From NCBI GenBank assembly GCA_017883205.1, contig JADGNZ010000005.1, positions 30,989 to 94,988 of the forward strand: a stretch of DNA of 64,000 nt, given 5' to 3'. Numbering within the stretch: position 1 is the stretch's first letter; each line of letters starts with the position of its first letter. Both the position numbers and the translations under genes were made by a program. Below, one piece after another: positions 6,290-64,000 of the stretch. The notes under the pieces were generated by a model. The model saw only the letters and a program-made list of their open reading frames with translations, was not told the DNA's origin and did not search any database. The DNA comes from Thermoanaerobaculia bacterium (GTDB lineage: Bacteria > Acidobacteriota > Thermoanaerobaculia > Gp7-AA8).

Positions 6290-6298
6290 TTGTATGGC

Positions 6299-21456: not shown

Positions 21457-21721
21457 GTCGATCCTCGTTGCATTGGATTAGTCGGATCTGACACAGACGG
21501 TGTGGTTCTGCGGTGCAGTTTGTCTTCGCGTCGTGCCGGCGGCAAAGCCTGCAGAGTTCTGACAACGAGTTTGTCCCGGTCGTCACCAGAAAGTTATTCC
21601 AGCAACAATGGTCGCAGCACGACCTGTTGTCAATGTGATGATTGAGGCGAACTGCATTGGCACGGAGAGCAAGCCTCAGCGCTCTCTGCGACTCTGTGGT
21701 TGGGGGACCCTGAGTAAGTAC

Positions 21722-48285: not shown

Positions 48286-49377
48286 TCAGTTCGAGCCTCC
48301 ACGCGCCGGGAGGTCCAGCTCGGCGCAAACGCCTCGGGGCTCCTGGGCGGTAACGCGTAGCACCGCATCGCCGCCGAACATGAGCTGCAGACGCTCGCGC
48401 AACGCAGTGAGGCCCGTTCCGAGTCCCTCGTTCGTCCGCCGGAGTCCCACGCCCGTGTCGATCACGCGGATCAGACAGCGGTCGCGGTCTCGTTGCACAT
48501 GAATGTCGATGCGCCCGCCTTCTTCGCTGGGGTCGATGCCGTGGCGCACGGCATTCTCCACGAGCGTCAGGAGCGCCGTCGGCGGGCACGGCAGCGCGAG
48601 CGCCGCTTCATCGACGTGCAGTTCGAATTGGAGCCGATCCGGCATGCGCATGTGCATCAACTCGAGGTAAGCCTCGACGAGTTGCAACTCCCGGGCGAGC
48701 GTCGTGACCGGCTCGTGTAGCTGAGGCACGGCCGCGCGGAGATAGGCGGTCAGGCTCCGCAGCACAACCGGCGCTTGCGGCGATCCCGCGTCGACCAGGG
48801 CCTGCACATTGGCCAGCGTGTTGAACAGGAAATGCGGTGCGACCTGCGCTTGCAGCAGGCTGAGACGCGCGTCCAGCGCCTGGCGCTCAAGCTCGCTGCG
48901 CTCCAGATCGAACGCGAGCGCTTGATGGCGGGCGAAGGCCTCCTTCTGCCGCAGCAGGGCGGCGAGGGCGGTCCACGGTGCCAGCAGGATGCTTAGGAAC
49001 GTCAGCGACATCCAGCCGTCCATCCGATCCTTGACCAGCCAGAACGGCGGAGCGCCGGCCTTCGTCGCGAGGATGTAGATCGTGACGGTTGTCAGAGGCA
49101 TGGCCACTCCGACCCCAACGACCTGCAACACCCATCGAGCGAGCCACCGTGGCAGCCGCTTCGGCCACTGCTCGAAGATTCCAAACATCAGCACTGCGAC
49201 CAGCCCGAGCGCTACCGTGCGAAGCAGCGCCGCCCATGGGCCGGATGTCCAATGAAAACCGAGCGGCAGGCCCACTGCCAGAGCGAGACCCAGGGCAACG
49301 AAGAAACGAGCCCACCCCTTCGTAAGCGCGGCCGCAGGCTGCAATGCAGAAGCGGCAGATCCGGGCATGTCATTCAT
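48286..49377 (-). CDS. LytS/YehU-family sensor histidine kinase (membrane sensor + His_kinase + HATPase_c)
   Basis: Several N-terminal TM helices. His-kinase box VAPHFLFNTLANV. ATPase motifs (LVENAVRHG, DTGVGL, GTGLGL). Immediately upstream of, and co-directional with, the LytTR regulator. Confidence 0.8.
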   Translation of the reverse strand: MNDMPGSAASALQPAAALTKGWARFFVALGLALAVGLPLGFHWTSGPWAALLRTVALGLVAVLMFGIFEQWPKRLPRWLARWVLQVVGVGVAMPLTTVTIYILATKAGAPPFWLVKDRMDGWMSLTFLSILLAPWTALAALLRQKEAFARHQALAFDLERSELERQALDARLSLLQAQVAPHFLFNTLANVQALVDAGSPQAPVVLRSLTAYLRAAVPQLHEPVTTLARELQLVEAYLELMHMRMPDRLQFELHVDEAALALPCPPTALLTLVENAVRHGIDPSEEGGRIDIHVQRDRDRCLIRVIDTGVGLRRTNEGLGTGLTALRERLQLMFGGDAVLRVTAQEPRGVCAELDLPARGGSN

Positions 49378-49675
49378 CCGCGGTCGTCACCAGACTTTGC
49401 CATGGGCAGCACGGTCACAGAACCGCGTCGTCGATCCGCTTTACTCCGCGGTGGACCTTGTGAAATGGATGGCACTCCCTGGCCGAAGATCGGATCGGTG
49501 TTACGCCACGGCCTGGATTCGCCGTTCGTCGTTCTCCTCCGCGTCTCAGGCGTTAAGAAGCGTCATTCGTCGCATGCTGCGTCATTCGCTCTCTTTCCAG
49601 CCGATACTCGGGCCACGGTTCGCAAGGAAAACACCTGCGAGGCACATGCGCACACGATCCAGCGGGGAGAGTCCA

Positions 49676-50092
49676 ATGAAACACACTGTGATGTTGACCG
49701 TCGCATCTCTGCTCTCGATCCTCTTCTTTACGCTTCACCTGGCGGACGACATCGTGCGCGGGTTCGAGCCGGGTACGCTCACAAACCTCATCGCGGTGCC
49801 CACCCTTGTCTTCTGGCTGTGTGGAACATTGATGCTTGCCGAGCGGCGATCGGGGTACATCATCACGCTCCTGGGAGGGCTCTTGTCCTCGCTCGTCCCA
49901 CTCGCCCACATGAGGGGGAAGGGTGTCGGCATCACCAGCAGAATCGCCAATTCCAATGGACATTTCTTCTTCGTCTGGGTGCTGTTCGCGATCGGCGTGA
50001 CCGGTCTCTTCTCCGTCATCCTCTCGGTGCACGGACTGTGGAGTCTGCGACGGGGACACGCCGATAGTTCTCCTCAGACGAGAGTCTCGTGA
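49676..50092 (+). CDS. Small integral membrane protein (~138 aa, 4 predicted TM helices), unknown function
   Basis: Start at ATG 49676 preceded by GGGGAGAG. The track ORF's first ~100 codons are Arg/Ser-rich junk. Hydrophobic segments LTVASLLSILFF, LIAVPTLVFWLCGTLML, IITLLGGLLSSLV, FFFVWVLFAIGVTGLFSVIL. GTGA-coupled to the esterase gene. Confidence 0.6.
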   Translation: MKHTVMLTVASLLSILFFTLHLADDIVRGFEPGTLTNLIAVPTLVFWLCGTLMLAERRSGYIITLLGGLLSSLVPLAHMRGKGVGITSRIANSNGHFFFVWVLFAIGVTGLFSVILSVHGLWSLRRGHADSSPQTRVS

Positions 50093-51084
50093 GCGTCATC
50101 CGCAGAGCTCTGCGTCTGTTCCTTCGGGGTGTGACCGTCGTTATTGTGCTGGTCGTGGTGCTGGCTGCGCTGTTCGGCTACTTCGTCTACACGCCTGCTC
50201 CTGAAGTGCCACGACTGTCCGGCACGCTGACCAGGGGAAGCATCGAGGTAGGTGGGCTGCAGCGGACTTACCGGACCTACGTGCCGCGGGGATTGGCAAG
50301 AGGAGCGCCGCTCGTCGTGGTGATGCACGGCGCGGGTGAAAACGGCGCGCAAATGCGGATCGAGACCGGATACGGGTTCGATCGGCTTGCGGACGAACAT
50401 GGCTTTGCGGTCGTCTATCCGAATGCATATGAGGGGTACTGGGACGTTTGCACCGTCGCCGAGGACGTCAGCGCGAACGGGCACAAGGTCGACGATGTCG
50501 GTTTCCTGACGGGGATGGTCGACAAGCTCGTTCGCGAAATCGGCGCCGACCCCAATCGCGTGTTCGCGGCTGGCAGTTCCCGCGGCGGTTTTATGACGTT
50601 TCGTCTGGCGCTCGAAGCTCCTTCCCGGTTTCGCGCAGTCGCAGCGGTGTCAGCGAACGTGCCGTCGCCGGAGAACTTCAAGTGCAAGCCCACGAGCGAG
50701 GGCACTCCTTCCGTGATGATCATGAACGGTACGGAGGACCCTCTCGTCCCGTTCGACGGTGGTTCGGTCAGCCTCTTCGGCTTGTTCTACAAGCTTGGCA
50801 AGGTCCGGTCGTCACGGGAGTCAGGCCAGTATTTTGCGGACCTCAACCACATCACGGGCACGCCTGAAACACAGCAGACCCAGGTGGCGGGCGGAGCCCG
50901 CGTGGAGCAGGTGCTCTGGCGCAACAACTCCAACGTGGAGGTGGAGCTCGTCGCCATTCACGGCGGTGGACATGGCATCCCTCAGCCGTACCGCCGTCGT
51001 CCGCGATTACTCGGCCCGTCGCCCATGGAACCGAACGGACCGGCGGTGATCTGGGCCTTTTTCGATCGACAGCGGCCCAGGTAG
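50089..51084 (+). CDS. Alpha/beta-hydrolase esterase of the PHB-depolymerase (LpqC-like) family
   Basis: N-terminal TM/signal segment. Conserved block VVVMHGAGENGAQM. Nucleophile elbow G-S-S-R-G (AAGSSRGGFM), which fits GxSxG. C-terminal HGGGHGIP. Confidence 0.85.
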   Translation: MSVIRRALRLFLRGVTVVIVLVVVLAALFGYFVYTPAPEVPRLSGTLTRGSIEVGGLQRTYRTYVPRGLARGAPLVVVMHGAGENGAQMRIETGYGFDRLADEHGFAVVYPNAYEGYWDVCTVAEDVSANGHKVDDVGFLTGMVDKLVREIGADPNRVFAAGSSRGGFMTFRLALEAPSRFRAVAAVSANVPSPENFKCKPTSEGTPSVMIMNGTEDPLVPFDGGSVSLFGLFYKLGKVRSSRESGQYFADLNHITGTPETQQTQVAGGARVEQVLWRNNSNVEVELVAIHGGGHGIPQPYRRRPRLLGPSPMEPNGPAVIWAFFDRQRPR

Positions 51085-51137
51085 TCACTCCTTTTCAGAT
51101 TAACCGCCGAAGAGAAAACGATGACCGGAGAGAGCAC

Positions 51138-51359
51138 ATGACCACGACGAGCAGGAACGCCAGAATCGCAGGGTTCCTCTATCTATTACTGGCGATCGCC
51201 GGCCCCCTCCGTTTCATGTACATTCCCGATACCCCGTTTGCGCATGGGAGCCTCACTCAGCTACTTGGTGTACGCCTGCAAATTCGGTCGGAACACCTGA
51301 GTGCTGATGCCGGGATGTTTGTTTTCGATCGTATCGTTGGCGGATTCTTCATCCTTTAA
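51138..51359 (+). pseudogene. Possible N-terminal remnant of a DUF4386-like membrane protein gene (MTTTSRNARIAGFLYLLLAIAGPL...), truncated after ~73 codons where it meets the 3' end of the convergent effector gene
   Basis: The N-terminus resembles the DUF4386 family start (recalled from memory, not searched). The ORF is short and overlaps the effector gene's 3' end by ~100 nt. The surrounding 51260-52100 segment is visibly less GC-rich. Confidence 0.35.
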
Positions 51360-53249
51360 GGGATGAAGAGCTTTCTGGTGTGCGTCGGTGCTATGCCAAG
51401 CGTTGATGTACTTTTCTCTCATTGTATTGATAATGCTTGGATAGCTCATCTCCCCAATACCGAAACCCTCGAAATACAATGTCTTACCATCTTTCCGCGT
51501 AAAGACGGCCCACTCTCCATTCCATAAGCCTGAAGGTGCTAATTCCCTGTAGTCGCGATAATTCACAAACGACACAGTGTCGCCTGGAACAAGGTCCTCT
51601 AGATTCGAAAGTCTCACCACACGCAGATATGGTTGCTTCGCACTGTTCACCGAGGATAGCAGAGGATGTTTCGTATTGCCGGAGTTATAGGATCCGGTTG
51701 GGTTTCCGACGATCATTTGTCCAAAATGAACGTCGAATGTCTTTGCACCAAACACGTTGAGTAACGATTGATAGTGTAGGAGGCCCGCTACGGTGGCACA
51801 GTCAGCAACGATTCTTTGTTCGAGAGGTTTTGGCAGCGTGACCTTCTCAATTGCTGCGGCGGCTCCCCCGCCGCGATTAAGCTGGAAGCCGCCAGGTGCG
51901 AATTTTGTATCTGTCGAAACAGGGGACCAGGCGGCCGTGTCCCGTAGGTCAAATCCCTTGTCTGTTGCTGTCGGGAATCGTCCGAATTGTGTATTGCTGT
52001 TATTGGCAAGCGATGCGTACAGTATGAGTGCTAAACGGTAGAGCACTTCGTTCGTGACGTCCGATGCCGAGTCAAAGTTAAAGTCGTAGTTTCGACGCTG
52101 TGATTCGAACTCGCCGACAACGGCCGCATAGCCCGATTTTTTCGAGGGGACTTCCTGTTGGGATTTGGCGTCCTGCATTTCTCGAAGGATCTGCGCCGCC
52201 CGCTTTTTCGCGGTCTCCTCCGTGAAGGGCATGTCTTTTGCCGAGTTGAACGACCCGCCCGTCTTCGATGTCAGACCCGCGACGACACCGGTGTACCAGG
52301 CGCTGACGCCAGCAGTCACTGCAGGCAACAGCTGTCCTGCTTTGGTTTTCTTTCCGCCGACGACGATCTTTCGTTGGACTGTGTCGGATGCAGATTGTGT
52401 GGTGTGGGCCAACTCGTGAGCTAGTAGATGGCGGCCTTCATTCGTGTCCGGGGCGTACTGGCCTCGCCCGAATACGATGTCCGTGCCCAGTGTGAACGCA
52501 CGCGACCCTGTGGCGTCGGCAATCTGTTCCGCCTCGTGGCCGACATGAATGCGCACGCCGCTAAAGTTTCGCCCGAATCGCGGTTCGAAGAACTGTCGCG
52601 TGGCGGTATCAAGAGGTTGGCCCGTCGAAGGTCGTGTTAAGCGTCCTCCACCGCCTCGGAGGGAGGGATTCTGGGTCTCAGGCTCAGGCGTCTGCATGAC
52701 CGAATCAGCTATGCGATCAGCCTCCTGCTCATGGAGATCTCCCGGTTCGCTCAGTCTCATTTCTCCGATTACCGCGCCGTCAAAGCGTCCCGGTACCCCA
52801 CGATGGGACGGCAGACCATTCGAGGTCGAGTGGTTACCTTCGCCGATATTCGTCTTCTTGTTGCCGCCAACAGGTCTTGTAATTTCCGGGGGGGCGGTCG
52901 CTCGGGTGTCGTGGTGAATATGCACGAGGCTGAGGTCGTGGCGGCCGAATGACTCCTGAATGCGGTCGAAGAACGGCAGTCTCTCCGTCGCACCGGCGTG
53001 AGCGCTGCTCACTGCTTCGTGAACCTTCTCCAAGTCAGCGGGCTCGCCTTCGCGTGAGTCGTGCCGCATCTGTAGCACCGGCGTCGTCGCGCGCACCGGG
53101 ACATGGCTGAAGTCGTGCTCGAAGCGTCCGGCGACCGAAGAAGCATGCGCCTGCGGAGCGTGCGATTGAACGCGCCGTGTCGGCGTCCAAGCACCATCTG
53201 CCGGTTCGGTGCTGGTTCCTGCTTTCCTCGATGTTCGAATAGCCTTCAT
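51261..53249 (-). CDS. eCIS-associated effector: N-terminal DUF4157 domain(s) with HExxH (zincin-like) motif + ~300-aa C-terminal domain of unknown function (lower GC)
   Basis: Start set to ATG 53249 (MKAIRTSRKAG...), 26 nt downstream of the preceding gene's stop. The track ORF extends to 53552 over the neighbouring gene in Arg-rich sequence. DUF4157 hallmark: FGRNFSGVRIHVGHEAEQIADATGSRAFTLGTDIVFGRGQYAPDTNEGRHLLAHELAHTTQ. Partial second copy upstream (AGRFEHDFSHVPVR). The C-terminal part contains DCATVAG...H...D candidates. Confidence 0.8.
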   Translation of the reverse strand: MKAIRTSRKAGTSTEPADGAWTPTRRVQSHAPQAHASSVAGRFEHDFSHVPVRATTPVLQMRHDSREGEPADLEKVHEAVSSAHAGATERLPFFDRIQESFGRHDLSLVHIHHDTRATAPPEITRPVGGNKKTNIGEGNHSTSNGLPSHRGVPGRFDGAVIGEMRLSEPGDLHEQEADRIADSVMQTPEPETQNPSLRGGGGRLTRPSTGQPLDTATRQFFEPRFGRNFSGVRIHVGHEAEQIADATGSRAFTLGTDIVFGRGQYAPDTNEGRHLLAHELAHTTQSASDTVQRKIVVGGKKTKAGQLLPAVTAGVSAWYTGVVAGLTSKTGGSFNSAKDMPFTEETAKKRAAQILREMQDAKSQQEVPSKKSGYAAVVGEFESQRRNYDFNFDSASDVTNEVLYRLALILYASLANNSNTQFGRFPTATDKGFDLRDTAAWSPVSTDTKFAPGGFQLNRGGGAAAAIEKVTLPKPLEQRIVADCATVAGLLHYQSLLNVFGAKTFDVHFGQMIVGNPTGSYNSGNTKHPLLSSVNSAKQPYLRVVRLSNLEDLVPGDTVSFVNYRDYRELAPSGLWNGEWAVFTRKDGKTLYFEGFGIGEMSYPSIINTMREKYINAWHSTDAHQKALHPLKDEESANDTIENKHPGISTQVFRPNLQAYTK

Positions 53250-53275
53250 GTGAAAAGCACCCCAAGTGCCGACTC

Positions 53276-54676
53276 CTACACCGGCGTCACCGGCGTCGCC
53301 CACTGCGCGAACCTGCTCCTCAAATCCGTTAGGGCGTTGTCGTTGAGCCGTACGCTCGCCAGCGGCGCGTAGTGGTGATCGACTCCGTTGGGCGGCATCG
53401 CACGCGGGGCGCCGTTGTCGTCGTTGGGCCAGACTGCGTTGCCGGTGGCGGTACGGGTGGGGATCAGCCAGTAGTCGCCGGTGCGGTAGGTTGCTTGCGG
53501 GGGCGAGACAAGGGAGAACTGGACCTGTACGCCGTCGGCAAGGTCGATCCATGGGTCGGTCGGGAGTGTGCGCGTGTCGATCGTGATGACGTTCGATGCC
53601 CAGCGGCGGAGGATGGGGCGTAGCGTGAGGTCGTTGCCTGTGTTGCCTATCGGGGGCGCGTTGAGCTTCACGGTCAGATCGTCGAGACCTACCCAGACGA
53701 CCTGGAGCAGCGGATTGGCGATGCCGTTATCGAGCACGTTGTCGTCGACGACTTCCACCCAATCGTTCACGCAGATCTGCGTACGGGCATCGCGGCCGAG
53801 GGAGTCGAGGTGGAGGATGACGCCCTCGATCTTTCGGATCGGATAGACGATCGAAGCGTTGTCGGCCGACCATTTAAACGTGGCCTGTTTGTCGGGATTA
53901 CCGGCCGGATCATGGATCTCGACGCGGAACAGACGGTTCTCCGTCCCGCGATAGAGCGCCTCGGGGGCGATCGTGCACGGGTCCGTCGATTCCGATTCGC
54001 TCGCTTTCGCGCGCATGCGGGCTCCGGTGCGCAGGAGAAGATTGAGCGCGATGTAACGGAGGTCCGCGCCGAGCGTCGAGACCGCGGTGGTGAGAGGCGG
54101 TTTCACCTGCGCCTGGTCGAGTGTCTTCAGCCTCCTGACGAGCACATCGAACGGCTGAAATGGCATCGCGCGCACCGTCCACTTCACGACGGCGCGGCTG
54201 CTCGTGTCGGGACCGAGGAGCGCGAGCTCGCGGATGCTGTCATCCTGTTCGGAGGAGACGTGGCGCTCGTAGACATCGAGATAGAACAACAGTGCCTGCT
54301 CGGCACCGCCCGCGCCATTGTTCATGTTGCTGGAGATCGTGATCGGCAAGCCGTATGTACGATTCTTGTCGTCCTGAATCGACTCCCAATAGTCAGCATC
54401 GGGAAGGTTGAGGCAGCGGATGCCGTCGACGTAGTACTGGCCCCATCGGAGCTGAAACGCATCCTTCACCAGCGGGCTGGAAAGGAGGATCTCGAAGCTG
54501 TCGTTCAGGCCGCCGTGCGGGCCGATGAGGTCGCGCCCGAGGCCGCGCAGGAAGCGCAGCAACGACTCGGTGTTCTCGTTGACGTCGCGGTCGAGTTGGA
54601 CGCGGCCCTGCTGGATGAGAACGCGTGAAACGGCCTCGTTGTAGTTGAAAGGATCCCAACTGAAATCGCCTTGCAT
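53276..54676 (-). CDS. 466-aa hypothetical protein of the eCIS locus (between baseplate genes and the effector); no P-loop, no recognisable family
   Basis: ORF with normal composition (MQGDFSWDPFNYNEAVSRVLIQQGRVQLDRD...), co-directional and tightly spaced with neighbours. Confidence 0.65.
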   Translation of the reverse strand: MQGDFSWDPFNYNEAVSRVLIQQGRVQLDRDVNENTESLLRFLRGLGRDLIGPHGGLNDSFEILLSSPLVKDAFQLRWGQYYVDGIRCLNLPDADYWESIQDDKNRTYGLPITISSNMNNGAGGAEQALLFYLDVYERHVSSEQDDSIRELALLGPDTSSRAVVKWTVRAMPFQPFDVLVRRLKTLDQAQVKPPLTTAVSTLGADLRYIALNLLLRTGARMRAKASESESTDPCTIAPEALYRGTENRLFRVEIHDPAGNPDKQATFKWSADNASIVYPIRKIEGVILHLDSLGRDARTQICVNDWVEVVDDNVLDNGIANPLLQVVWVGLDDLTVKLNAPPIGNTGNDLTLRPILRRWASNVITIDTRTLPTDPWIDLADGVQVQFSLVSPPQATYRTGDYWLIPTRTATGNAVWPNDDNGAPRAMPPNGVDHHYAPLASVRLNDNALTDLRSRFAQWATPVTPV

Positions 54677-54688
54677 GATGGCTCTCCC

Positions 54689-56857
54689 TCAGTCTGCGTA
54701 GATGATTCCGGTCTCCATGCCGGCGGGGGTTGCGTGATCGAGGCGGGCGCGCAGATTGGCCACCCGCTGGGGAAGAAACAGATCGTGGAACGCGCCCATC
54801 TCCGACTCGTCATCAGCGCCGCTGCTGATCTCGGAGGCGGTGCAGAGCGTGAGCTGGGCGTAAGCGGAATCGTCGAAGCGCATGCTGCCGAAGCGTGGCA
54901 CAACGCGGCGCTCCTCGGCGGCGAGTAGAGCATCGACGTTCTGCCCCGGCGCGGCGTGATCCCGCACTGCTTTCTCGACGAGATCGGGCTGGCAGTGATA
55001 GCGCCGCGGCGTACGCGAATCGGGCGGCACGTAGCAGAAACGCACACAGCCGCCCTGCCGCCGGACGATGCGCACGGCCGCGCCGAAGAGCGTGTTCTCG
55101 GCGAGCTCCATCGCGTGAGCAAGGACTTTCCCGAAGACCGTACAGCGGACGAAGCTGACCGCGGCCCAGGCGTAGCTTGATCCGGGACCGACGACGGCTT
55201 CCAGATCGTTCGAGGTGGCGTCGACGATCGAGTCACGCACGTCGATGGCGACCGGTTCCCCTTCCGCCGTTTCGTTCATCACCGCGATCGTCCCAACGAT
55301 GCTGCTCTGCACCGTCACGCGGCCCGTGAGGTTGTCGATCTCCAGGCTTGCCTCTGTTGGTGCCACGCAACTGCAGTCGGAGCGCAGGCTCCATCCCGGC
55401 ACGAGCGTGCAACGCTGCACCAGCACGCGCGCGCTGACCGGCTTGTCGCCTTTTCCTTCGACGCGCAGCGGACGGCCGGCCAGCACGATTCCGTCGAGCG
55501 TGAAGCGGGAGCCTTCGCTCATGATGACGCGCAGCGACTCGCCGCTCGACGGCTGGTAGTCGAGTACGCGGACGACGGGGCGGCAGCGATTGGCCGCGCG
55601 GATCTGCAGGCTCGTTCCCGCGTCGAGCGCAACGTCGATCTCGCCCGACTCGGTGTAGAAGCCGCTGTCTGCGATCTCGATGACGGCGTGCGCCGGCTTT
55701 TCGTCGAACCAATGCGCCAGCGCTTTCTGGAGAGTGGCGTGCTCCTCGTTCGGCCCGACGCGATAGAGCACGGCGTGCGACGGCTGCATGAGCGTGCGCG
55801 GCGACTCGTGCGCGCCAATGTCAGCGCTGAATCCGTAGCGGTAGGAGACGGCCACCTTCGCTTCGCGCGGCAGGGCGATCCGGCCGAGCTGGGGATCGAC
55901 GACCACTTTCCCGTCGGGCGGCCGGTACTTCCAGCCGGTCAGGTCGGCGGCGATGATGTCCTCCGCGCTCACCGGCGTGTCGGAGCCGTCGAGCCAGATG
56001 GCGAAACTCTTCGGCGTCCCGTCGGGCTCGAAGCCGTAGTAGTCGTCACGGTGCAGCTCGAGCGCGCGGCGGCGGATCGGCGCGGGCACGTTGACTTCAT
56101 CGGCGATGGTGGTGGGATCGGGCTCCGGCTCGGCGCGCGTGAAGAGCGGCGCGTCGTTGCCGAGCGCGCTGAACGTGTAGAAGTAGAAGCCGCTGCCGCG
56201 CTGCAGGAAGTAGGCGGGAGCGTGCGTGACCGGAAAGGCGCGCAGGCGCCAGACGTATGCGGCGGCGTTGGGGATGTTGTGGCGGCCGGGATTGCGCGCG
56301 GCGTTGATGTTGCGGACGTCGATGGTGTGGCCGCTGCGGTCGAAAGGCGTGTCGATCAGGTCGAGCGCCTCGCCGTCGCGCAGATCGAGAAGACGGCCGC
56401 GGGCGTCGGTGCGGGAGACGAGCTGCGTTCTGCCGAGGAGTGTGAAGAACTCGACGGCGCGCGAAGGGAAGCCGGCGGAATCGTTGGCGAGCTGCTCGAC
56501 GAGCGCCAGCGTCCCGCGGCGGCGCAGGCTGCGCAGGTAATTCGCCACGTCGCGTCGCGGCGCGGCGGCTCGGGCGCGCAGCCGGGTCTCCGCGGCAGAG
56601 TCGCTGCCGTCGTCGACGAACGGAACGGCGCTGTAGCCGGCGAGATCGCCGATGTAGGGCACGATCCAGTCGCGGCAGGTCTCGATGAACCAATCGTCGT
56701 ACATCTGCGCGATGTCGTCCTCGATGACGTTGACCTGCTCCGCGATCACGCGCAGCAGACCGCGCAGCGGATAGCCCTGAGCGACGTCGCGCTGGCGATA
56801 GACGGCCGGCAGCAACGCGTACAGGCGGTCGATGCGGTCCTGCGTGGGCTCAGTCAT
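54689..56857 (-). CDS. 722-aa baseplate-distal protein with phage P2 gpI-like (tail protein I) N-terminal region
   Basis: Start moved to MTEPTQDRIDRLYALLPAVYRQRD (ATG ~56857, ATGA overlap with the upstream gene). 'LYALLPAVYR...LLRVIAEQVNVIEDDIAQMYDDWFIETC..WIVPYIGDL' resembles the gpI family N-terminus (from memory). Confidence 0.65.
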   Translation of the reverse strand: MTEPTQDRIDRLYALLPAVYRQRDVAQGYPLRGLLRVIAEQVNVIEDDIAQMYDDWFIETCRDWIVPYIGDLAGYSAVPFVDDGSDSAAETRLRARAAAPRRDVANYLRSLRRRGTLALVEQLANDSAGFPSRAVEFFTLLGRTQLVSRTDARGRLLDLRDGEALDLIDTPFDRSGHTIDVRNINAARNPGRHNIPNAAAYVWRLRAFPVTHAPAYFLQRGSGFYFYTFSALGNDAPLFTRAEPEPDPTTIADEVNVPAPIRRRALELHRDDYYGFEPDGTPKSFAIWLDGSDTPVSAEDIIAADLTGWKYRPPDGKVVVDPQLGRIALPREAKVAVSYRYGFSADIGAHESPRTLMQPSHAVLYRVGPNEEHATLQKALAHWFDEKPAHAVIEIADSGFYTESGEIDVALDAGTSLQIRAANRCRPVVRVLDYQPSSGESLRVIMSEGSRFTLDGIVLAGRPLRVEGKGDKPVSARVLVQRCTLVPGWSLRSDCSCVAPTEASLEIDNLTGRVTVQSSIVGTIAVMNETAEGEPVAIDVRDSIVDATSNDLEAVVGPGSSYAWAAVSFVRCTVFGKVLAHAMELAENTLFGAAVRIVRRQGGCVRFCYVPPDSRTPRRYHCQPDLVEKAVRDHAAPGQNVDALLAAEERRVVPRFGSMRFDDSAYAQLTLCTASEISSGADDESEMGAFHDLFLPQRVANLRARLDHATPAGMETGIIYAD

Positions 56858-59800
56858 GCTTTGATCTCCGTGAGGATGAAGAGGTCGGCCAGTTCCGCCG
56901 GCAGATAGGCGATCTCCGCGGCGGCGTATTGCGGAAGGTCGCCGGTTTTCGACGGCATCACGACGCATGCGAAGTGCGGAAGGATCGAAGGGCTGACGCA
57001 GACTTTTGGCGCTGGTGCTGCTTGCGTGGTTCCCGAGCCCATCGCCACGCCCGTTGCGACGCCGGAGAGGGCGGCGTTATCGGTGAGAACGCCGTCGCGA
57101 AGGATGTCCTCCCAGCGGATGCCGGCGAGCTCGTCGAGGTCGACGTACACGACCCCCGGCACGCTCTGAATCGTCGCAATCACCTCGGCTGCGTAAACCG
57201 GCTGGCCGAAGCCGCGGCGGTCGTACGAGAAGGTGTCGAGCAGCGCGGCGCGGATCTTCGGCGCTACCAGCGGCCAGAGGTAGTCCGGACCGACGCGCAC
57301 GCGGGCCGAGCCGGTCATCACCAGTTTTTCACGTACCTTGACGACGAACGGCTGATAAGGATCGCCGTACTTGCGCAGCGCTTCGGTGAGGTTGCGGAAA
57401 AGATCGGAGGTCTCGTCGATGTCGATGTCGCCGGTCCCGCCGATGGTGAGGTGTACGAAACGGCGGCGGCCGTCGGAGAGCGCAGTGGCGGTGGCTTTGG
57501 CAATGCCGCCGAACGTCCGCGCGAAGTCGGCGAAGTCGCTGACGGAAACGACGCGGCCCATGGCCTGAAGCGACACGGGGATATTGCCTCGCGCATCGTC
57601 GCGCGACTCGCGGGCGGCGCCTCCGCTGGCCTCGATCGGATTGATGACGTCGTGCACGCCGGCGGGGCGCGAGATGGCCGTGGCGATCTGACTGGCGCGC
57701 ACGTTTCCGTCAGGCCCGATTCCGTTGCGATACGCCGCGCGGACGTTGTCGCTGCCGGTGAAGGGCCTCTGCCCGTGCCGGCCGTCGCCGAATGTGATCG
57801 AGACTTTGTCGTCGTCGCCGGTCTTCGTCACGAAGACGCGGTCGGCCGGTCCGGCGTCCGCGAGTGAATCCGTCTCGTGCCAGAGCACGTCGTCGACGCG
57901 TACGGCGAGCGTGGAGCGGACGCCCTCGACGGTCGGCGCCGAAACGAACGTCAGAGGCGCGTGGCGGAGCTTGAAGGTCTGCATCGCCTTCGACGCATCG
58001 CCGCCGCCAAGGATTTCGAACTGGCTCTCGCCGTGCGTGGCCGGAGCGATGTTGCCGAGGATGGCCACGCTGCTCCGATCGTACTGGAAGGCCAGGCCTT
58101 TCGGAGCGAGGACGAGGACGGTGTGTGGCGTGCCTCCCGGACCGGCGTCGGTCTGCTGCTCGACGTTGTCGATCATGGCCAGCTCCGCGGCAACGACGCC
58201 GTGCGTGCCGCCCGTATCGACGCGGTTGCCGCGCACGATGACGCGGTGTCCGGCAGCCAGTCCTGCGACGACGGCATCGAGCTCGATGCGCGTCTCCGAT
58301 TCGCCCGCAACTTCGTTTGCGTCGGCGGGCATGCCGACCGGGCGCGTGACGGGCTGCTGCGCCAGCGGCAGCAACTCGCTTTCGACGAGGACGGAGGTGG
58401 CGCGAATGAATTTGAGGTTGTTGGTCAGATTCCCAAGGCTGGTGTGATTAGGGTCAGGGGTTTGAGGCATCGGGTCGAAGTGGCCGACCCACGGAGCGTC
58501 CAGCGTCAGCGTCGTGCTCCTTCCGCTGATGCCGTAGGCGGTCAACGGGCCGGTCTCCACTTCGGTCACCGTCGAGACGCGCGTACCGAATTGATTTCGC
58601 GTGACGGCATAGCTCCCCGTCGTGATGGCTTCGTCCGCAGTATCGAGATGAAGGATGGTTTCTGTCTCGGTGAAGGGCGACGGAAACGGCGGCGCTGCGG
58701 CCGCGCGAGCCGCCGGCCGGTCTTCGAAAAGCACCGCCGGCGCGTTGTAGCCGAAGACGTTCGCGCGGCGGCGCAGAACGTAGACGCCGCGCAGCTGTTC
58801 GTATGGTTTTTCGCCGGTGCAGAGATTGGCGAGCGCTCCGTAAAGCGTCGTTGCGAGCTGCGGACGGAACGCCGTGAGCAGCCGCTGTCGGTAGTCGTAA
58901 CGTGGATTCCGGACCTCGGCGAACGAGCGCGTGAAGTCGAACGCGCTGGGCGGCGCGACACCGCGCGCCGTCGTCAGAGGCTTGAGAAAATCGCTCAGCG
59001 TGGGGACGGCGCATCGGACCTTGACGTTCGACGGCTCTTCATCGATGGCGATCAACGCGTCGCGAATAGTGGCGTGAAAATCGGAGAAGTTTGTCTGCAG
59101 CACGGAGTGAGGGGTGCCGAGGAGAATCTGTCGCTTCAGCTCGATCAGCATGTCGTTCGAGCGGGTACCGGACGCTGCCAGCGCCACCGTTTTGGCCGAG
59201 ATCTTTTTTTTCGTTTTCGCTTTGCCGCGCGCTTTGACGATTGCGGGAGCCACGGGCACCGCGGCCGGCGTCGCAGGTTGGGCGGCTATGGCCTGCGAGA
59301 CAGCCAGATAGAGCCTGGCGTAGTCCGGTTGTACCGGCTCTAGTTGCAGCTCGGTGCGATCGTGCTCGGTGTCGGGCACAGCTTTCAAGACGCGGCGGAT
59401 TGCGTGATACGTCTGGCCGGTGGCATCGAGGACGAACAGCAGCGGATCGCGCGGCTGGAACTGCTTGTCCGTTCCGTCGACCCAGACCGAGGTGATCGTC
59501 AGGACGTTGTCGACGAGCACGGTCTGCGGACGGCTCATGCGCGGCTTGAGCGCGTTCCACGCTCCGCGCGCTTCGATGTCCTCGGAGGTCTCGAACGTCT
59601 GCGCCTGCTCGTCCTTGCGCGCGGGAATGCTCTGCGCTTTCGAGCCGGCCGGGATGGTTGTGATCGCGTCATCGTCGAGCGTGTAGGCGAGATGCACGCT
59701 GGACGCGACGCCGGGCTTGAGCGTGTAGTCGACGAGACGTCCGAGCTCCAGGATCGATCGCCGTTCCGTTGCTGTCCGCAGGTAGCCCTCGGTGGCGATG

Positions 59801-60054
59801 CGCTCCTGGTAGAACGTGAGCACGTCACCGGCGACGGCCCACGCGTCGAGCAGCGCCATGGCCGGATCGTCCGGCTCGCGTGTCGTCAACGCAGGAATCG
59901 CGTCCGGCAGGCCGCGGACCATGGCGTCGAGGAACGTGCCGTAGGTGCCGGCGCGGTAGTGGATCGCGGAGAGGCCGGGGCGATTTGTCGCGCCGAGGTG
60001 CTCGCCCGCGCCTTCGAGACAGGCGCAGCAACCGCATGAACCGGCCGCGCTCAT
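56854..60054 (-). CDS. 1066-aa Baseplate_J-like (gp6/gpJ family) baseplate wedge protein
   Basis: gpJ-like C-terminal signature ...ASQIATAISRPAGVHDVINPIEASGGAARESRDDARGNIPVSLQAMGRVVSVSDFADFA... . Cys-rich N-terminus MSAAGSCGCCAC. Overlaps the upstream gene stop by 4 nt. Confidence 0.75.
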   Translation of the reverse strand: MSAAGSCGCCACLEGAGEHLGATNRPGLSAIHYRAGTYGTFLDAMVRGLPDAIPALTTREPDDPAMALLDAWAVAGDVLTFYQERIATEGYLRTATERRSILELGRLVDYTLKPGVASSVHLAYTLDDDAITTIPAGSKAQSIPARKDEQAQTFETSEDIEARGAWNALKPRMSRPQTVLVDNVLTITSVWVDGTDKQFQPRDPLLFVLDATGQTYHAIRRVLKAVPDTEHDRTELQLEPVQPDYARLYLAVSQAIAAQPATPAAVPVAPAIVKARGKAKTKKKISAKTVALAASGTRSNDMLIELKRQILLGTPHSVLQTNFSDFHATIRDALIAIDEEPSNVKVRCAVPTLSDFLKPLTTARGVAPPSAFDFTRSFAEVRNPRYDYRQRLLTAFRPQLATTLYGALANLCTGEKPYEQLRGVYVLRRRANVFGYNAPAVLFEDRPAARAAAAPPFPSPFTETETILHLDTADEAITTGSYAVTRNQFGTRVSTVTEVETGPLTAYGISGRSTTLTLDAPWVGHFDPMPQTPDPNHTSLGNLTNNLKFIRATSVLVESELLPLAQQPVTRPVGMPADANEVAGESETRIELDAVVAGLAAGHRVIVRGNRVDTGGTHGVVAAELAMIDNVEQQTDAGPGGTPHTVLVLAPKGLAFQYDRSSVAILGNIAPATHGESQFEILGGGDASKAMQTFKLRHAPLTFVSAPTVEGVRSTLAVRVDDVLWHETDSLADAGPADRVFVTKTGDDDKVSITFGDGRHGQRPFTGSDNVRAAYRNGIGPDGNVRASQIATAISRPAGVHDVINPIEASGGAARESRDDARGNIPVSLQAMGRVVSVSDFADFARTFGGIAKATATALSDGRRRFVHLTIGGTGDIDIDETSDLFRNLTEALRKYGDPYQPFVVKVREKLVMTGSARVRVGPDYLWPLVAPKIRAALLDTFSYDRRGFGQPVYAAEVIATIQSVPGVVYVDLDELAGIRWEDILRDGVLTDNAALSGVATGVAMGSGTTQAAPAPKVCVSPSILPHFACVVMPSKTGDLPQYAAAEIAYLPAELADLFILTEIKA

Positions 60055-62909
60055 CGTCCACCTCCCACGGCCGCGAAGACGAGCAGGCCGTTCTCCGGTA
60101 CTGCCGGATCGTTGTCGAGACGCGCGATCTCGTTCGGCCCGAGCTTGAGCAATCCATCCGCAAAGTCGGGATTGCCTCGCGACTCATCCGCCAGCCGTTC
60201 CAGCCGGGCCACGCAGACTTTCGCCACGCCGTCGACGGCCATGACCGCGGCGACGATGCGGCTGACGTAGACGGCTTCGCCGAACGAGAGATTGTCGGGA
60301 TGGAAGAAGCCGAGGCGGCCGTCTGGCAGCGCGCGGTTGCTCAGCGCGTCGCGCACAGCGGCCACGACATGTGCGCGCAGATGGTGTGCCTGCACGAGAA
60401 GCTCAAGCTCGATCCGCAACGGAACGGAATCGGCGCGGCCGACGCGAAGGTCGTGTCCCATTCGCCGGTAGCGATGGAGCAGGCCGGCGACCGAGGTCTG
60501 CAAATCGGCGTCAAGATCCGAAGTACCGAATTCGTCGACGGCGACGTCGGCTTCGTACCAGCTCCGGTTCCAATAGAGATTGCCAGCTGCAGCCTGCACG
60601 CGCGGGTTGCGCGCCGGGAAACGGAGGTACTGCGCGAGCGTGGCGTAGTCGCCGGCGGTGACGGCGCGCTGCAGGTCTTTGCGCACGGCGGCCGGCGCGA
60701 TGGCCTTCACTTCCGCGACCGATTCAGGATCGACGGCGCCGGCGGATGGAAGCGGATTGCGAACGAGTGTGACGCCGTCGTTGAAGCCGCTGCGGAAGAC
60801 GACGTGCGCGATCGCCTCGGGTCCGACGAGTCCTTCCCGTCCGTTTCCGGTTCGATAGGTGGCGACGAACGACATGCCGGCTTCGACAGCGCGGCCGGTG
60901 TCGCCATCGCCAAATCTGAGGTGCGCGAGGCCGGCATCATCGACCTCGGCGACAAAATGCGGATCGTCGCCGCTGTCGAGCAGGTCGGCGCGCGGCGACC
61001 AGATTTCCATCAGCCCGCGCAGGTTGGCTTCGAGCAACGCCTCGAGATCCGGCGTGTCCTTGCCCGCATCGAGCAGCTTGACGACCTCGGGGCGCAGTCT
61101 GCGCCGCAGCGCCAGCAGGAGGCGTTGCTCCGGCTCCGGTTTCAACAGTGAGCTGGCGAGCGCGTGGATGTCGCGCAGTTCGTCGGGGCGGAAGAGCGAC
61201 GGCGCATCATCGTCATCCGCTGGATCGCCGGCGAAGAGCGCGGGAGGAATGCTTCCCGCGGTGATTGCAGGCCGCGCGGCGCGTGCGTTTTGCTGCATCA
61301 CTGCCGAGGCGGAGGCGCTGGCAGCGAGCGGCTCGGCGAACGTGAGCGGACCGCGGGTGAGCACAGGACGATAGCGGCCCGTCACGCGCGCGCGCTCGGC
61401 CGGCGTGCCTTCGCCTTCGCAATGATCGGCGAACGGGAGCTCGAGGATGGGAGCAAGCGGCTCATCGGAAATCGTCGCGCCGTGATCGGCGAGCACGATG
61501 TTGCCGCGCGCGACGCCGAGGTCCTTCTGGAATTCGCAATCGGGCGCGGCGCCGACCGCGGAGACGCAGAGCGCGAACGGCAGCGCATCCTCGCGGCTCC
61601 ACTCCACTTCGAGCACGCGATTGCCGAGGAGCGGATCGCAACAGGGGGTGACCTTCGTCAGTCGTACCACATGGCGATGCGTGCGGTCGCCGCCGGGCTC
61701 CTCGAAGAGCAGGAAGTCGCCGGGCTCGAGTCGCAGGATGTTGGCGTGGGGCGGCTCGGGTGGCGGTGGTGGTGGCGGACATCCGCAGCCGTCGTAGTGC
61801 TTGTGCGGCGGCGGACCTCCGCAGAGATCGGGATCGTACTTGTTGTTTTCCTGCGGCTCGTCGAGCAGCGTCGTGCGCGTGGCGCCGCGCGGGATGCAGC
61901 ATTCCTTGTCGCCCCAGGTGTAGATGTGAATGAGGTTGTGTACTTCGTGGAGCTTGATCGTGGTCTTGTCCGTGAGCGGCTCGAAGGCGAGCCAGCCGGG
62001 CGGCAACTTCTCGAGGTCGGAGGCGCGCAGCGCCGCCGGCGCGGACGATCCGGCCGGACGGGTGATGAAGTAGATGTTGCGCGGATCGAGCTCCGGATCG
62101 CCCGTCACGCGCAGTTCGAGAAAGACGCGGGCGTTGCAGCCGTCGTGCATCGCGTAGTCGATGAGCCGCACGTGACGGCGCACGGAGGTGCGCTGCCGCG
62201 CGGTGTCGAGATACTGCTCGGTGCCGACGGCGTCAAGGTAGTAGCTGAGATAGTCGGCGGTGTATGCGAGAACTTCGACGATGGCGATGCCGACGTCGGG
62301 CACATGCCGCTCGCGCCAGTCGGGCATGACCAGCGAGAGTCGATCGAGGATGAGTTGCCGGAAGGAGGTGTAGTCCCGGGCAAGGTAAGAGATCGGCGGT
62401 TTGGGCCGGACCTCGGTTGGGCACGGAGCTTCCGATTTGCAGTCGATTTCCGCGGGGCAGTCGGCCTTGAACGTGAAGCCGGCGCAGGCATAGCGCCGGT
62501 CGAGCGATTTCAACGGCTCGTCCGTGGGCTCGCCGCTCTTTTCATCGACTTCGACGAAGCAGATCGTGTACTCCGACCAGTCGCCTTCCTTGTTCACGGT
62601 GATGCCGAGGCAACTCTCGTCGAATCGCGTCGCGGCCGGTTTGGTATCGAAGTCGATGGCGTTGATGCCGGTGATCCGGCGCCCGCCACGGATGAAAATG
62701 TGCCGCAATGCCGCTTTCTTTTCATCGGGCGTGAGCGGCTTCCCCTTTTGCGGCCCGTCGGTAGCGGGCAGAAACTCGAGCGGGATCCCGGTCAGGAAGT
62801 GGACGCAGAGGTGCGAGCCGTGGACGTCGATGTAGTCGAGTCCATTGAGGCTCTGCTCGCGGATGAGCTGGCGGCGATGCTCGTCGCAGCAGGTCAGGCC
62901 GGCGGTCAT
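60051..62909 (-). CDS. 952-aa second Baseplate_J-like baseplate protein
   Basis: Start moved to MTAGLTCCDEH (ATG ~62909, ATGA overlap with the gp25-like gene). The track ORF's first 44 codons are Arg-rich and would overlap gp25 by 135 nt. gpJ-like motif ...GLVGPEAIAHVVFRSGFNDGVTLVRNPLPSAGAVDPESVAEVKAIAPAAVRKDLQRAVTAGDYATLA. Contains a Pro-rich Cys/His patch (CGGPPPHKHYDGCGCPPPPPPPEPPH). Confidence 0.75.
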   Translation of the reverse strand: MTAGLTCCDEHRRQLIREQSLNGLDYIDVHGSHLCVHFLTGIPLEFLPATDGPQKGKPLTPDEKKAALRHIFIRGGRRITGINAIDFDTKPAATRFDESCLGITVNKEGDWSEYTICFVEVDEKSGEPTDEPLKSLDRRYACAGFTFKADCPAEIDCKSEAPCPTEVRPKPPISYLARDYTSFRQLILDRLSLVMPDWRERHVPDVGIAIVEVLAYTADYLSYYLDAVGTEQYLDTARQRTSVRRHVRLIDYAMHDGCNARVFLELRVTGDPELDPRNIYFITRPAGSSAPAALRASDLEKLPPGWLAFEPLTDKTTIKLHEVHNLIHIYTWGDKECCIPRGATRTTLLDEPQENNKYDPDLCGGPPPHKHYDGCGCPPPPPPPEPPHANILRLEPGDFLLFEEPGGDRTHRHVVRLTKVTPCCDPLLGNRVLEVEWSREDALPFALCVSAVGAAPDCEFQKDLGVARGNIVLADHGATISDEPLAPILELPFADHCEGEGTPAERARVTGRYRPVLTRGPLTFAEPLAASASASAVMQQNARAARPAITAGSIPPALFAGDPADDDDAPSLFRPDELRDIHALASSLLKPEPEQRLLLALRRRLRPEVVKLLDAGKDTPDLEALLEANLRGLMEIWSPRADLLDSGDDPHFVAEVDDAGLAHLRFGDGDTGRAVEAGMSFVATYRTGNGREGLVGPEAIAHVVFRSGFNDGVTLVRNPLPSAGAVDPESVAEVKAIAPAAVRKDLQRAVTAGDYATLAQYLRFPARNPRVQAAAGNLYWNRSWYEADVAVDEFGTSDLDADLQTSVAGLLHRYRRMGHDLRVGRADSVPLRIELELLVQAHHLRAHVVAAVRDALSNRALPDGRLGFFHPDNLSFGEAVYVSRIVAAVMAVDGVAKVCVARLERLADESRGNPDFADGLLKLGPNEIARLDNDPAVPENGLLVFAAVGGGR

Positions 62910-63265
62910 GATGTGCTCCGTTCGAAGGTGTCGGTGTGAACGTCGCCGGTGCGGCGAAGGGCGTAGCGGACGAGGACGCGTAGCGTCGAATCTTCGGCGA
63001 CGACTTCCAGCGCCTGCAGATCGAGGACGTCGCCGAGCCATTGCTGGATGGCGGCGCGCGTTGTGAACTGCAGCGCGGCGGCGAGCTCGGGACTGTTCGG
63101 CGCGAAGACGAGCTGCAGCAAGCCGCTGCCGAACTCGGGCCGGTTCACGCGCTCGCCCGGATTGGTGAAGAGCAATTGCTCGAGCATGCCGCGCACGTGC
63201 GCCGCGTCATCGCACGAGGCAGTGCGGCCCCGCTCATCGAAGTGGAAGGGAAAATCGATGTTCAT
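62906..63265 (-). CDS. gp25/GPW-family baseplate protein (lysozyme-like fold; Afp9/TssE-like)
   Basis: MNIDFPFHFDERGRTASCDDAAHVRGMLEQLLFTNPGERVNRPEFGSGL... matches the GPW_gp25 pattern (FPF.FD..G......I...I...L.T..GER...P.FG). Confidence 0.8.
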   Translation of the reverse strand: MNIDFPFHFDERGRTASCDDAAHVRGMLEQLLFTNPGERVNRPEFGSGLLQLVFAPNSPELAAALQFTTRAAIQQWLGDVLDLQALEVVAEDSTLRVLVRYALRRTGDVHTDTFERSTS

Positions 63266-63272
63266 CGCATCC

Positions 63273-63599
63273 TCATTGCGCGGTCACCCGGACCTGGTTG
63301 GGTATGACGATCAGAGGCGTGCCGTTCGGCGTGGAAATGCCCTGACTGTCGGCGAGCAGAAGCGGCTGGCCGCCGGCCTGTACGCGCGTCGCGGCGGTGG
63401 TGAATTGCGCGGTCACGCAGGGAGGGCTGCCGCCGCTGGTCATCGCCGGGAAGGTGCAGCCGGCCACCATGTATGCGGTGGAGAGCACGACCACCGGCTG
63501 CCCGCCGATGGAGACGCGCGGATTAGGCGTCACCGGCGTGGCCGCACCGAGGTGCGCGCACTGGATCGTGGTCGTCGCTATCAGGACGGGGCCGGGCAT
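63273..63599 (-). CDS. PAAR-domain spike-tip protein
   Basis: 108 aa, Gly/Pro/Thr/Val-rich with PAAR-like segments (...GGQPVVVLSTAYMVAGCTFPAMTSGG...GGQPLLLADSQG...). Confidence 0.75.
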   Translation of the reverse strand: MPGPVLIATTTIQCAHLGAATPVTPNPRVSIGGQPVVVLSTAYMVAGCTFPAMTSGGSPPCVTAQFTTAATRVQAGGQPLLLADSQGISTPNGTPLIVIPNQVRVTAQ

Positions 63600-63614
63600 G
63601 TCGTCTCCTGTCGT

Positions 63615-64000
63615 TCAGATGATGGTCAGCGCGCCCTTGTTCACGTTGACGTTGGGCCCGATCATCACGATCGACGCCCCCTTGCCGTTATCGATGTAGA
63701 TGCCGGTGTCGTTCACGGTGATCGAAGCGCCGGTGAGCGACTTGAGGATGATTCCGCCGGTGGGGCCGGGGAGGTCGCTGATGACGATGCGGTTCTGCAG
63801 GGTCGTCTGCAGAACGATGCTCGGGCTGATCGGATTGTTCGTCGCCGCCGTCATCTTGGCGTCGCTCGGCATCTCCGACTCCATCCCCCAGAAGCAGCCG
63901 GTCCAGATGGGATAGTCGGGATCGCCGCCCTCGAACTCGATCCACACGCCTGATCCGAGTTGCGGGAGATACGAGATGCCCTGCAGTTTTCCGGCGATCG
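63615..64000 (-). CDS. Baseplate central spike (P2 gpV / VgrG / Phage_GPD-like), C-terminal part; 5' end beyond window
   Basis: Translation continues upstream of the track's Met to the window edge (...IAGKLQGISYLPQLGSGVWIEFEGGDPDYPIWTGCFW...). 'VWIEFEGGDPDYPIW' is the gpV/VgrG OB-fold signature. The C-terminal Gly/Asn/Ile-rich repeats (GIYIDNGKGASIVMIGPNVNVN) look like spike beta-helix sequence. Confidence 0.75.
   Translation of the reverse strand, partial: IAGKLQGISYLPQLGSGVWIEFEGGDPDYPIWTGCFWGMESEMPSDAKMTAATNNPISPSIVLQTTLQNRIVISDLPGPTGGIILKSLTGASITVNDTGIYIDNGKGASIVMIGPNVNVNKGALTII

Follow-up and report, generated by a model that had tools for sequence, protein, structure and literature searches.

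What enzyme does an acidobacterial DUF4157 protein carry at its C-terminus, and is the protein likely to be cargo of the injection apparatus whose baseplate genes precede its own? The DNA analysed here (the window) is a stretch of 64,000 nucleotides (nt) from a Thermoanaerobaculia bacterium (Acidobacteriota; Gp7-AA8), positions 30,989 to 94,988 of contig JADGNZ010000005.1 in assembly GCA_017883205.1; the gene in question, called the effector gene below, occupies 51261..53249 on the minus strand. Its C-terminal domain does not have a new fold: it belongs, as a divergent member, to the Tgl transglutaminases known from Bacillus. We consider it fairly probable that the whole protein is a modular cargo of a contractile injection system (CIS), with a Tgl-type payload that would act as an injected protein-glutamine acyl-transferase toxin. 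The parts of the gene, all on the minus strand, are as follows.

51261..53249, minus strand: complete effector gene, DUF4157 with Tgl-type transglutaminase, 662 amino acids (aa) plus stop, start MKAIR (open reading frame (ORF) list, translation, Pfam eCIS_core and TGL)
52755..53249, minus strand: N-terminal region, residues 1-165, predicted disordered, candidate loading region or leader
53088..53162, minus strand: first partial copy of the DUF4157 start, '...GRFEHDFSHVPVRA', residues 30-54 (7.8 bits, E=2e-4)
52884..52979, minus strand: second partial copy of the DUF4157 start, 'LPFFDRIQESFGRHDLSLVHIHHD', residues 91-122 (11.8 bits, E=1e-5)
52389..52616, minus strand: DUF4157/eCIS_core domain, zincin-like fold, residues 212-287 (Pfam PF13699, E=1.1e-30)
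52404..52418, minus strand: HEXXH motif of DUF4157, H278-E-L-A-H282 (regular-expression search of the translation, residues 278-282)
52215..52367, minus strand: linker with a long helix, from DUF4157 to the TGL core, residues 295-345
51264..52214, minus strand: Tgl-type transglutaminase domain, NlpC/P60-like papain fold, Pfam match to residues 346-616 and C-terminal extension to 662
51798..51803, minus strand: Asp483-Cys484, Cys484 being the equivalent of Tgl C116 and the predicted catalytic nucleophile, Asp483 that of Tgl E115
51513..51515, minus strand: Glu579, in the motif W-N-G-E-W, equivalent of the Tgl catalytic E187

An identical copy of the 662-aa protein is present in the public protein collection (P0001). 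A longer ORF, reaching to 53552, was rejected: it would overlap the upstream gene at 53276-54676, and the 662-aa form is the one in the public collection. PADLOC and PHROGs gave no match to the effector. A signal scan of 50900-53700 found no promoter-like sites, and the terminator-like matches in the same interval are all on the plus strand, so that none fits the minus-strand effector gene.

The C-terminal domain is a divergent Tgl

PF20085 (TGL) is the 'protein-glutamine gamma-glutamyltransferase' family, that of the Bacillus spore-coat Tgl. Residues 346-616 match it over profile positions 18-221 of 245 with 55.0 bits, above the curated gathering cut-off of 23.7 (E=9.2e-15), although the sequence-only reading of this DNA had recognised no family there. 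The resemblance is remote. With the C-terminal domain as a single sequence, phmmer found nothing in the PDB at E<=1 and a word-indexed search of 5.8 billion proteins gave no match; AlphaFold run on the domain without an alignment returned a predicted local distance difference test score (pLDDT) of 32. The domain was resolved only by an exhaustive search with HMMER, which covered 1.84 billion cluster representatives and gave 87 relatives at E<=1e-3, and by the profiles and models built from these. Pfam TGL is matched by 83 of these relatives. Searched against the PDB, their profile has exactly two matches, the transglutaminases of Geobacillus stearothermophilus (7C9J, E=2.8e-30) and B. subtilis (4P8I/4PA5, E=3e-26).

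In a pairwise BLASTP comparison with B. subtilis Tgl (a query sequence verified as identical to 4P8I chain A), the payload aligns over 125 residues with 21% identity and a pairwise E of 3e-5; overall identity to the two Tgl enzymes is only 16-21%, a distance at which the single-sequence phmmer search was blind. The AlphaFold2 model made from the 87-sequence alignment has pLDDT >90 over most of residues ~168-662, with the TGL core wholly included, and in Foldseek its top ranks are 4P8I (E=2e-9, template modelling (TM) score 0.71) and 7C9J (TM 0.79), with nothing further significant. The initial guess at a transglutaminase-like cysteine enzyme holds up, while the suggestion of a new catalytic fold and a new toxin family is refuted by the clear homology to a known enzyme family in Pfam, PDB and Foldseek searches. 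Beyond the core, the C-terminal extension to residue 662 bears a 'PG...V.R' motif that is kept among the 87 relatives. The characterised enzyme is a free-standing spore protein of 245 aa, whereas here the domain ends a 662-aa effector and is accompanied by a helical linker and the conserved extension.

Active site and substrate tunnel

Tgl, the smallest transglutaminase known, needs neither processing nor cofactors for its activity (PMC6490927). Its nucleophile Cys116 pairs with Glu187, which Glu115 can replace; the active site lies in a tunnel, with W149, Y171, R185 and N188 at the front entrance, used by the glutamine substrate, and F69, W184 and H200 at the back entrance, used by the lysine substrate (PMC6490927; residue roles also in PMC10318531). 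The E115A, C116A and H200A mutants are inactive (PMC6490927). We used an hmmalign map to find the effector residues equivalent to those of the tunnel, in addition to the catalytic ones given above.

F69 (lysine side): F425, kept
W184 (lysine side): W576, kept
H200 (lysine side): F596
W149 (glutamine side): T518
Y171 (glutamine side): S560
R185 (glutamine side): N577
N188 (glutamine side): W580

The effector thus retains the catalytic Cys, the catalytic Glu and the lysine-side F69 and W184 equivalents, and differs from Tgl at Glu115, at His200 and at all four glutamine-side positions. Cys484, the sole cysteine among the 662 residues, occupies a column with C in 82 of the 87 relatives and a gap in the other five; the Glu579 column has E in 82. 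The residue before the cysteine is E in 42 relatives and D in 39, and Asp483 retains an acidic side chain that is shorter than that of Tgl Glu115. Nearly invariant positions across the family are C484, E579, G556-D557, F561, N563, Y567, G595, G597 and R654. A Cys/His/Asp triad had been proposed from the sequence alone: the cysteine of IVADCATVAG does align with the Tgl nucleophile, whereas the conserved set is [E/D]-C plus Glu, and no conserved His column occurs in the 87-sequence family.

In this subfamily the glutamine-side entrance has been rebuilt while F69 and W184 of the lysine side are kept, and a glutamine substrate different from that of the spore-coat enzyme is therefore to be expected. 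We infer that the acyl-transfer chemistry is unchanged and is directed at another glutamine substrate.

The N-terminal region and the DUF4157 module

The expected architecture, with DUF4157 in the N-terminal part and a distinct payload domain after it, agrees with the Pfam matches (eCIS_core at 212-287, TGL at 346-616). Pfam finds one complete DUF4157/eCIS_core domain in the effector. The 'partial second copy' that had been reported does exist, except that it is in fact two short partial copies, each spanning the first ~25-33 DUF4157 positions (the 'fG.DFS.VrvH' motif); they were detected by hmmsearch with a DUF4157 profile from 24 homologues, and their E-values apply to a single 200-residue target. 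They lie in the N-terminal residues 1-165, of which just 20% are hydrophobic and which are rich in A/R/G/S/T/H/P; AlphaFold2 gives pLDDT of about 30-45 for residues 11-165. This region is a candidate loading signal or leader, a role suggested by analogy with published effectors (PMC11297309). On the other side of DUF4157, the linker at residues 295-345 contains a helix (304-333) with pLDDT >90 in the model, and it is common to the closest homologues (it aligns in P0002 and P0004-P0006).

On the reading favoured here the protein has four parts: a disordered leader (1-165), the zincin-like DUF4157/eCIS_core module, the helical linker, and the Tgl-type C-terminal payload. After delivery into a target cell, a thioester would form through attack of Cys484 on the side-chain amide of a glutamine in a protein; this intermediate would be resolved either by a lysine or other amine (cross-linking or transamidation) or by water (deamidation), and target proteins would be damaged.

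Gene neighbourhood

The effector is the final gene of an operon-like, same-strand block of contractile-injection baseplate genes, and lies directly downstream of them.

53276-54676, minus strand: DUF6519 gene (Pfam E=3.5e-60)
54689-56968, minus strand: 759-aa protein of no family (no match in Pfam, NCBIfam, PHROGs or PADLOC)
56854-60054, minus strand: TIGR02243 'putative baseplate assembly protein' (NCBIfam E=3e-66)
60051-63041, minus strand: TIGR02243 'putative baseplate assembly protein' (NCBIfam E=8e-74)
62906-63265, minus strand: gp25 (Pfam GPW_gp25 E=5e-17)

The block 53276..63265 also gives PHROG baseplate wedge and Pfam Baseplate_J matches. Judged by its position, the 759-aa protein could be a tail-fibre or receptor-binding component. 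Upstream of gp25, on the minus strand at 63273-63947, are two small ORFs of 108 aa and 110 aa (the start of the latter includes 'WIEFEGGDPDYPIWTGCFW'), which we take to resemble PAAR-like and VgrG/gp5-like spike parts; neither has a Pfam, PHROG or NCBIfam match at the thresholds used.

Downstream of the effector there is a convergent alpha/beta-hydrolase (esterase) gene of native composition, 176 nt from the effector stop. A search for a cognate immunity gene, which the sequence-only reading had advised, came up empty: the 176-nt gap holds no candidate, and the genes 3' of four homologous loci are unlike each other and unlike the window, leaving no conserved downstream partner. A remnant of the gene found downstream in a Pyrinomonadaceae homologue (below) was likewise absent from the window. 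A plus-strand ORF of 73 aa (51138-51359) begins 54 nt past the esterase stop, inside a low-GC island described below, and runs antisense into the 3' end of the effector gene. It is called as a gene in a Logan assembly as well, and its first ~33 residues are transmembrane-like; the ORF may encode a small membrane protein, or it may be what is left of a gene truncated where recombination took place. A suspected likeness to the N-terminus of DUF4386 proteins had no Pfam support even at E<=10 and was dropped.

Relatives and their loci

DUF4157 accompanies the TGL domain in 27 of the 87 representatives, LysM in two and RHS repeats in one; some of the others have Sec-like leaders or long low-complexity N-termini. 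The closest relative (P0002), from a Pyrinomonadaceae metagenome-assembled genome (MAG), has 572 aa, 46% identity and the same architecture, and carries the NCBI name 'DUF4157 domain-containing protein'. The clusters to which the TGL relatives belong are small, with 1-4 members. When the effector protein alone was used to search a genome collection, just three relatives were returned, all DUF4157-only (MAGs of Terriglobales, Acidobacteriota and Proteobacteria).

The homologous loci with informative or uninformative neighbours were these.

L009: DUF4157-TGL gene adjoining a CIS tape-measure protein (CIS_TMP) and an AAA ATPase
L008: AAA ATPase beside a pair of DUF4157-TGL genes
L012: tandem arrangement with a further DUF4157 gene
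L013: a DUF4157 plus Het-C gene close by
L004, L010, L011: CIS gene not found in the available DNA

We interpret the effector as injection-system cargo because it has DUF4157, because it follows baseplate genes, because 27 of its 87 relatives also have DUF4157, because homologues lie near CIS, AAA ATPase or other DUF4157 genes, and because a toxin of comparable design, EAT14 (below), sets a precedent.

Two of these loci have further peculiarities. (i) In L008 (JGI 3300072120), three genes (3077-4462, 4474-6231 and 7212-8642) share an N-terminal motif, 'DDW-D-(V/L)H-QLQ-VQ'. The trio comprises one DUF4157-TGL effector and two unannotated proteins, and BLAST confirms the match between the unannotated two; the second DUF4157-TGL effector of this locus is at 9494-11167. 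The shared motif looks like a common leader for the cargo of one injection system. (ii) In L004 (Pyrinomonadaceae MAG DATMVE010000048.1), the upstream region 1-9900 holds VWA, PP2C phosphatase, beta-helix, Ser/Thr kinase, Exo_endo_phos and PLD-like genes and may be an effector or signalling island. No injection-system gene was seen within 10 kb in L004.

Base composition and probable transfer of the payload

A two-boundary likelihood fit delimits a low-GC island.

51081..52190, no strand: low-GC island, GC 0.51 vs 0.63 outside (flanking 49001-56000)

The island contains the TGL domain and the 3' intergenic DNA, running from the convergent esterase stop to about codon 353, where its edge coincides with the start of the C-terminal domain (the DUF4157/payload junction). 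The GC drop suspected at the C-terminus proves to be well beyond the variance of the window: the lowest-GC windows of 300, 600 and 900 nt in the 64 kb all begin at 51251-51351, and the 600-nt minimum is 0.48 vs a window mean of 0.638 (standard deviation 0.037). GC at third codon positions (GC3) is 0.57 in the C-terminal half of the effector gene and 0.64 in the N-terminal half, against 0.79 +/- 0.056 for other genes of the window. The whole effector gene is compositionally foreign, and the payload more strongly so.

The Pyrinomonadaceae locus L004, the only close homologue with long context, has a GC step at the same junction. There the neighbouring genes have GC3 of 0.84-0.93, whereas the value is 0.77 for the DUF4157 part of the gene and 0.54 for its TGL part, and a low-GC island (10591-12740) starts inside the homologous effector gene and runs through the next gene. 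Loci from low-GC hosts (L008, L009) show no step. Because of the island, the GC3 values, the matching step in the Pyrinomonadaceae homologue and its absence in low-GC hosts, we conclude that recombination at the junction of the two domains probably brought in the payload and its 3' DNA from a lineage of lower GC, in the manner of polymorphic toxins; the idea of a horizontally swapped payload is thereby strengthened.

The gene 3' of the effector in L004, inside its low-GC island, encodes 277 aa with a hydrophobic N-terminus at GC 0.49, and may be a co-transferred partner or an immunity gene. In the window itself, the second lowest-GC stretch (5900-6650) lies at and just past the 3' end of an 815-aa ORF on the minus strand (6299-8746, GC 0.56, GC3 0.68). 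Neither this ORF nor the preceding 1731-aa ORF (8743-13938, minus strand) has a Pfam match, and upstream of the two is a 2248-aa Ig/PKD/CarboxypepD_reg protein (14799-21545, minus strand). The 5900-6650 region may be another foreign or variable C-terminal region.

Comparison with known effectors

DUF4157 is a signature of the toxins of extracellular contractile injection systems (eCIS) (PMC11297309). eCIS-associated toxins have been defined by their proximity to eCIS core genes, at a distance of no more than about ten genes and as a rule on the downstream side of the operon (PMC11297309), and with those described by Geller 2021 and Danov 2024 the effector shares both DUF4157 with HEXXH and the position downstream of baseplate genes. 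Closest in design is EAT14 of Chitinophaga rupis (DUF4157, LysM and Transglut_prok PF09017), which kills E. coli and yeast and whose toxicity is abolished by C298A, D397A or H410A (Danov et al. 2024, PMC11297309). Like our effector it has an N-terminal DUF4157 and a C-terminal transglutaminase-like cysteine enzyme and is encoded downstream of an eCIS operon; its payload, however, is of the Streptomyces/Kutzneria type with a Cys-Asp-His triad, whereas ours is of the Tgl type with a Cys-Glu dyad. Pfam matches neither PF09017 (even at E<=1) nor LysM in the effector. By analogy, EAT14 is a functional precedent for the mechanism proposed here.

In Pseudomonas aeruginosa VgrG2b (PDB 6H56), a C-terminal metallopeptidase domain fused to the spike of a type VI secretion system (T6SS) is itself the effector; here the metallopeptidase-like DUF4157 module instead precedes a separate payload, and is a candidate loading adaptor or protease. 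Polymorphic toxins of the RHS and contact-dependent inhibition (CDI) type resemble the effector in joining a constant N-terminal delivery part to a variable C-terminal payload of foreign composition, with a GC step at the junction, and one TGL relative is fused to RHS repeats; they differ from it in that the effector lacks a cognate immunity gene or conserved downstream partner.

No paper was found that links Tgl-type domains (PF20085) to toxins or to injection systems, and those supplements of PMC11297309 that were searched, one of them in part, gave no mention of such a link. Since EAT14 is already published (PMC11297309), a DUF4157 effector with a transglutaminase-like payload is not new as an idea. 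What is added is a new payload type for a known toxin class; such effectors, and the notion that an eCIS payload can be transglutaminase-like, were both on record.

Weighing the explanations

Several observations count against reading the protein as an injected acyl-transferase toxin. His200, without which Tgl is inactive in vitro (PMC6490927), corresponds to Phe596 in the effector, and most relatives also have Phe there; in place of Glu115, likewise required, stands Asp; and the conserved glutamine-side Trp149, Tyr171 and Asn188, with the less conserved Arg185, are all substituted, so that a chemistry other than cross-linking could be at work. The NCBIfam equivalog for spore-coat Tgl (PRK03187) scores 30.6 bits, far under its cut-off of 307; the payload belongs to a distant paralogous subfamily and is not an orthologue of the spore-coat enzyme. 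As to delivery, an 'extracellular' injection system is deduced from baseplate genes only, the sheath, tube and ATPase genes being outside the window, and in three of eight homologue contexts (L004, L010, L011) the available DNA has no CIS gene. The lack of an immunity gene is what a non-self target would lead one to expect, yet it does not in itself speak for toxicity.

The most probable of the alternatives is a payload with hydrolase and not transferase activity: a cysteine peptidase or amidase of the NlpC/P60 type, which would cut peptidoglycan or a target protein as Tae-type T6SS effectors do. Many 'transglutaminase-like' proteins are really proteases. The TGL family sits within the NlpC/P60 group of papain-like enzymes (PMC10318531), the Tgl substrate-entrance residues are unconserved, and the authors of the EAT14 study likewise could not exclude protease activity (PMC11297309). 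The canonical NlpC/P60 His is, however, replaced by the Tgl-type Glu, and the lysine-side tunnel residues F69 and W184 are retained; a hydrolase is in our view unlikely.

Still less probable is a maturation or 'spot-welding' enzyme, not a toxin at all, which would cross-link the injection particle or the envelope of the producer as Tgl does the spore coat. Characterised Tgl enzymes strengthen pre-assembled structures of their producer (PMC6490927), and such a role would suit a gene at the end of a baseplate operon with no immunity gene found. Against it, DUF4157 marks cargo toxins (PMC11297309), one relative has the TGL domain fused to RHS repeats and others have it fused to Sec-type leaders, several DUF4157-TGL genes have no structural genes beside them or form tandems with further DUF4157 effectors, and a foreign, swapped composition is typical of payloads, not of structural accessories.

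It is very improbable that horizontal transfer left only a relic here, a gene that is decaying or inactive and no longer has a function: atypical codon usage across the whole gene, the rarity of the family (clusters of 1-4 members) and the short plus-strand ORF over the 3' end, which might mark a rearrangement junction, would suit it, but the 662-codon frame is uninterrupted, the nearly invariant family positions are all intact, the structure model is confident, and an independent Logan assembly (L007) is 100% identical to the window in DNA over the 2.5 kb compared, with the same gene order.

Implications for the Tgl family and for injection-system toxins

We therefore retain the explanation that the protein is injection-system cargo with a Tgl-type payload, at the strength given at the outset. 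More tentatively, and with rather less confidence than in the cargo role itself, we suggest that outside the spore-formers Tgl-type enzymes may mainly be delivered toxins, as fusions with DUF4157, RHS or secretion leaders, whose rebuilt glutamine entrance would direct them to cross-link or deamidate one specific prey or host target.

Among predicted DUF4157 eCIS effectors, 983 of 1130 have no annotated payload (PMC11297309). One such payload is now placed in a defined family of enzymes whose mechanism is known and for which structures have been solved, with C484, E579 and D483 as its predicted key residues, and the DUF4157-TGL fusion recurs in no fewer than 27 cluster representatives. If a toxin of this family does have another glutamine entrance, it could serve as a lead to a new intoxication mechanism and as a protein-labelling enzyme. 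If the proposal is true, the acidobacterial protein would represent an uncharacterised toxin activity for contractile injection systems, and the spore-coat Tgl of Bacillus and these toxins would be two uses of one minimal, constitutively active transglutaminase.

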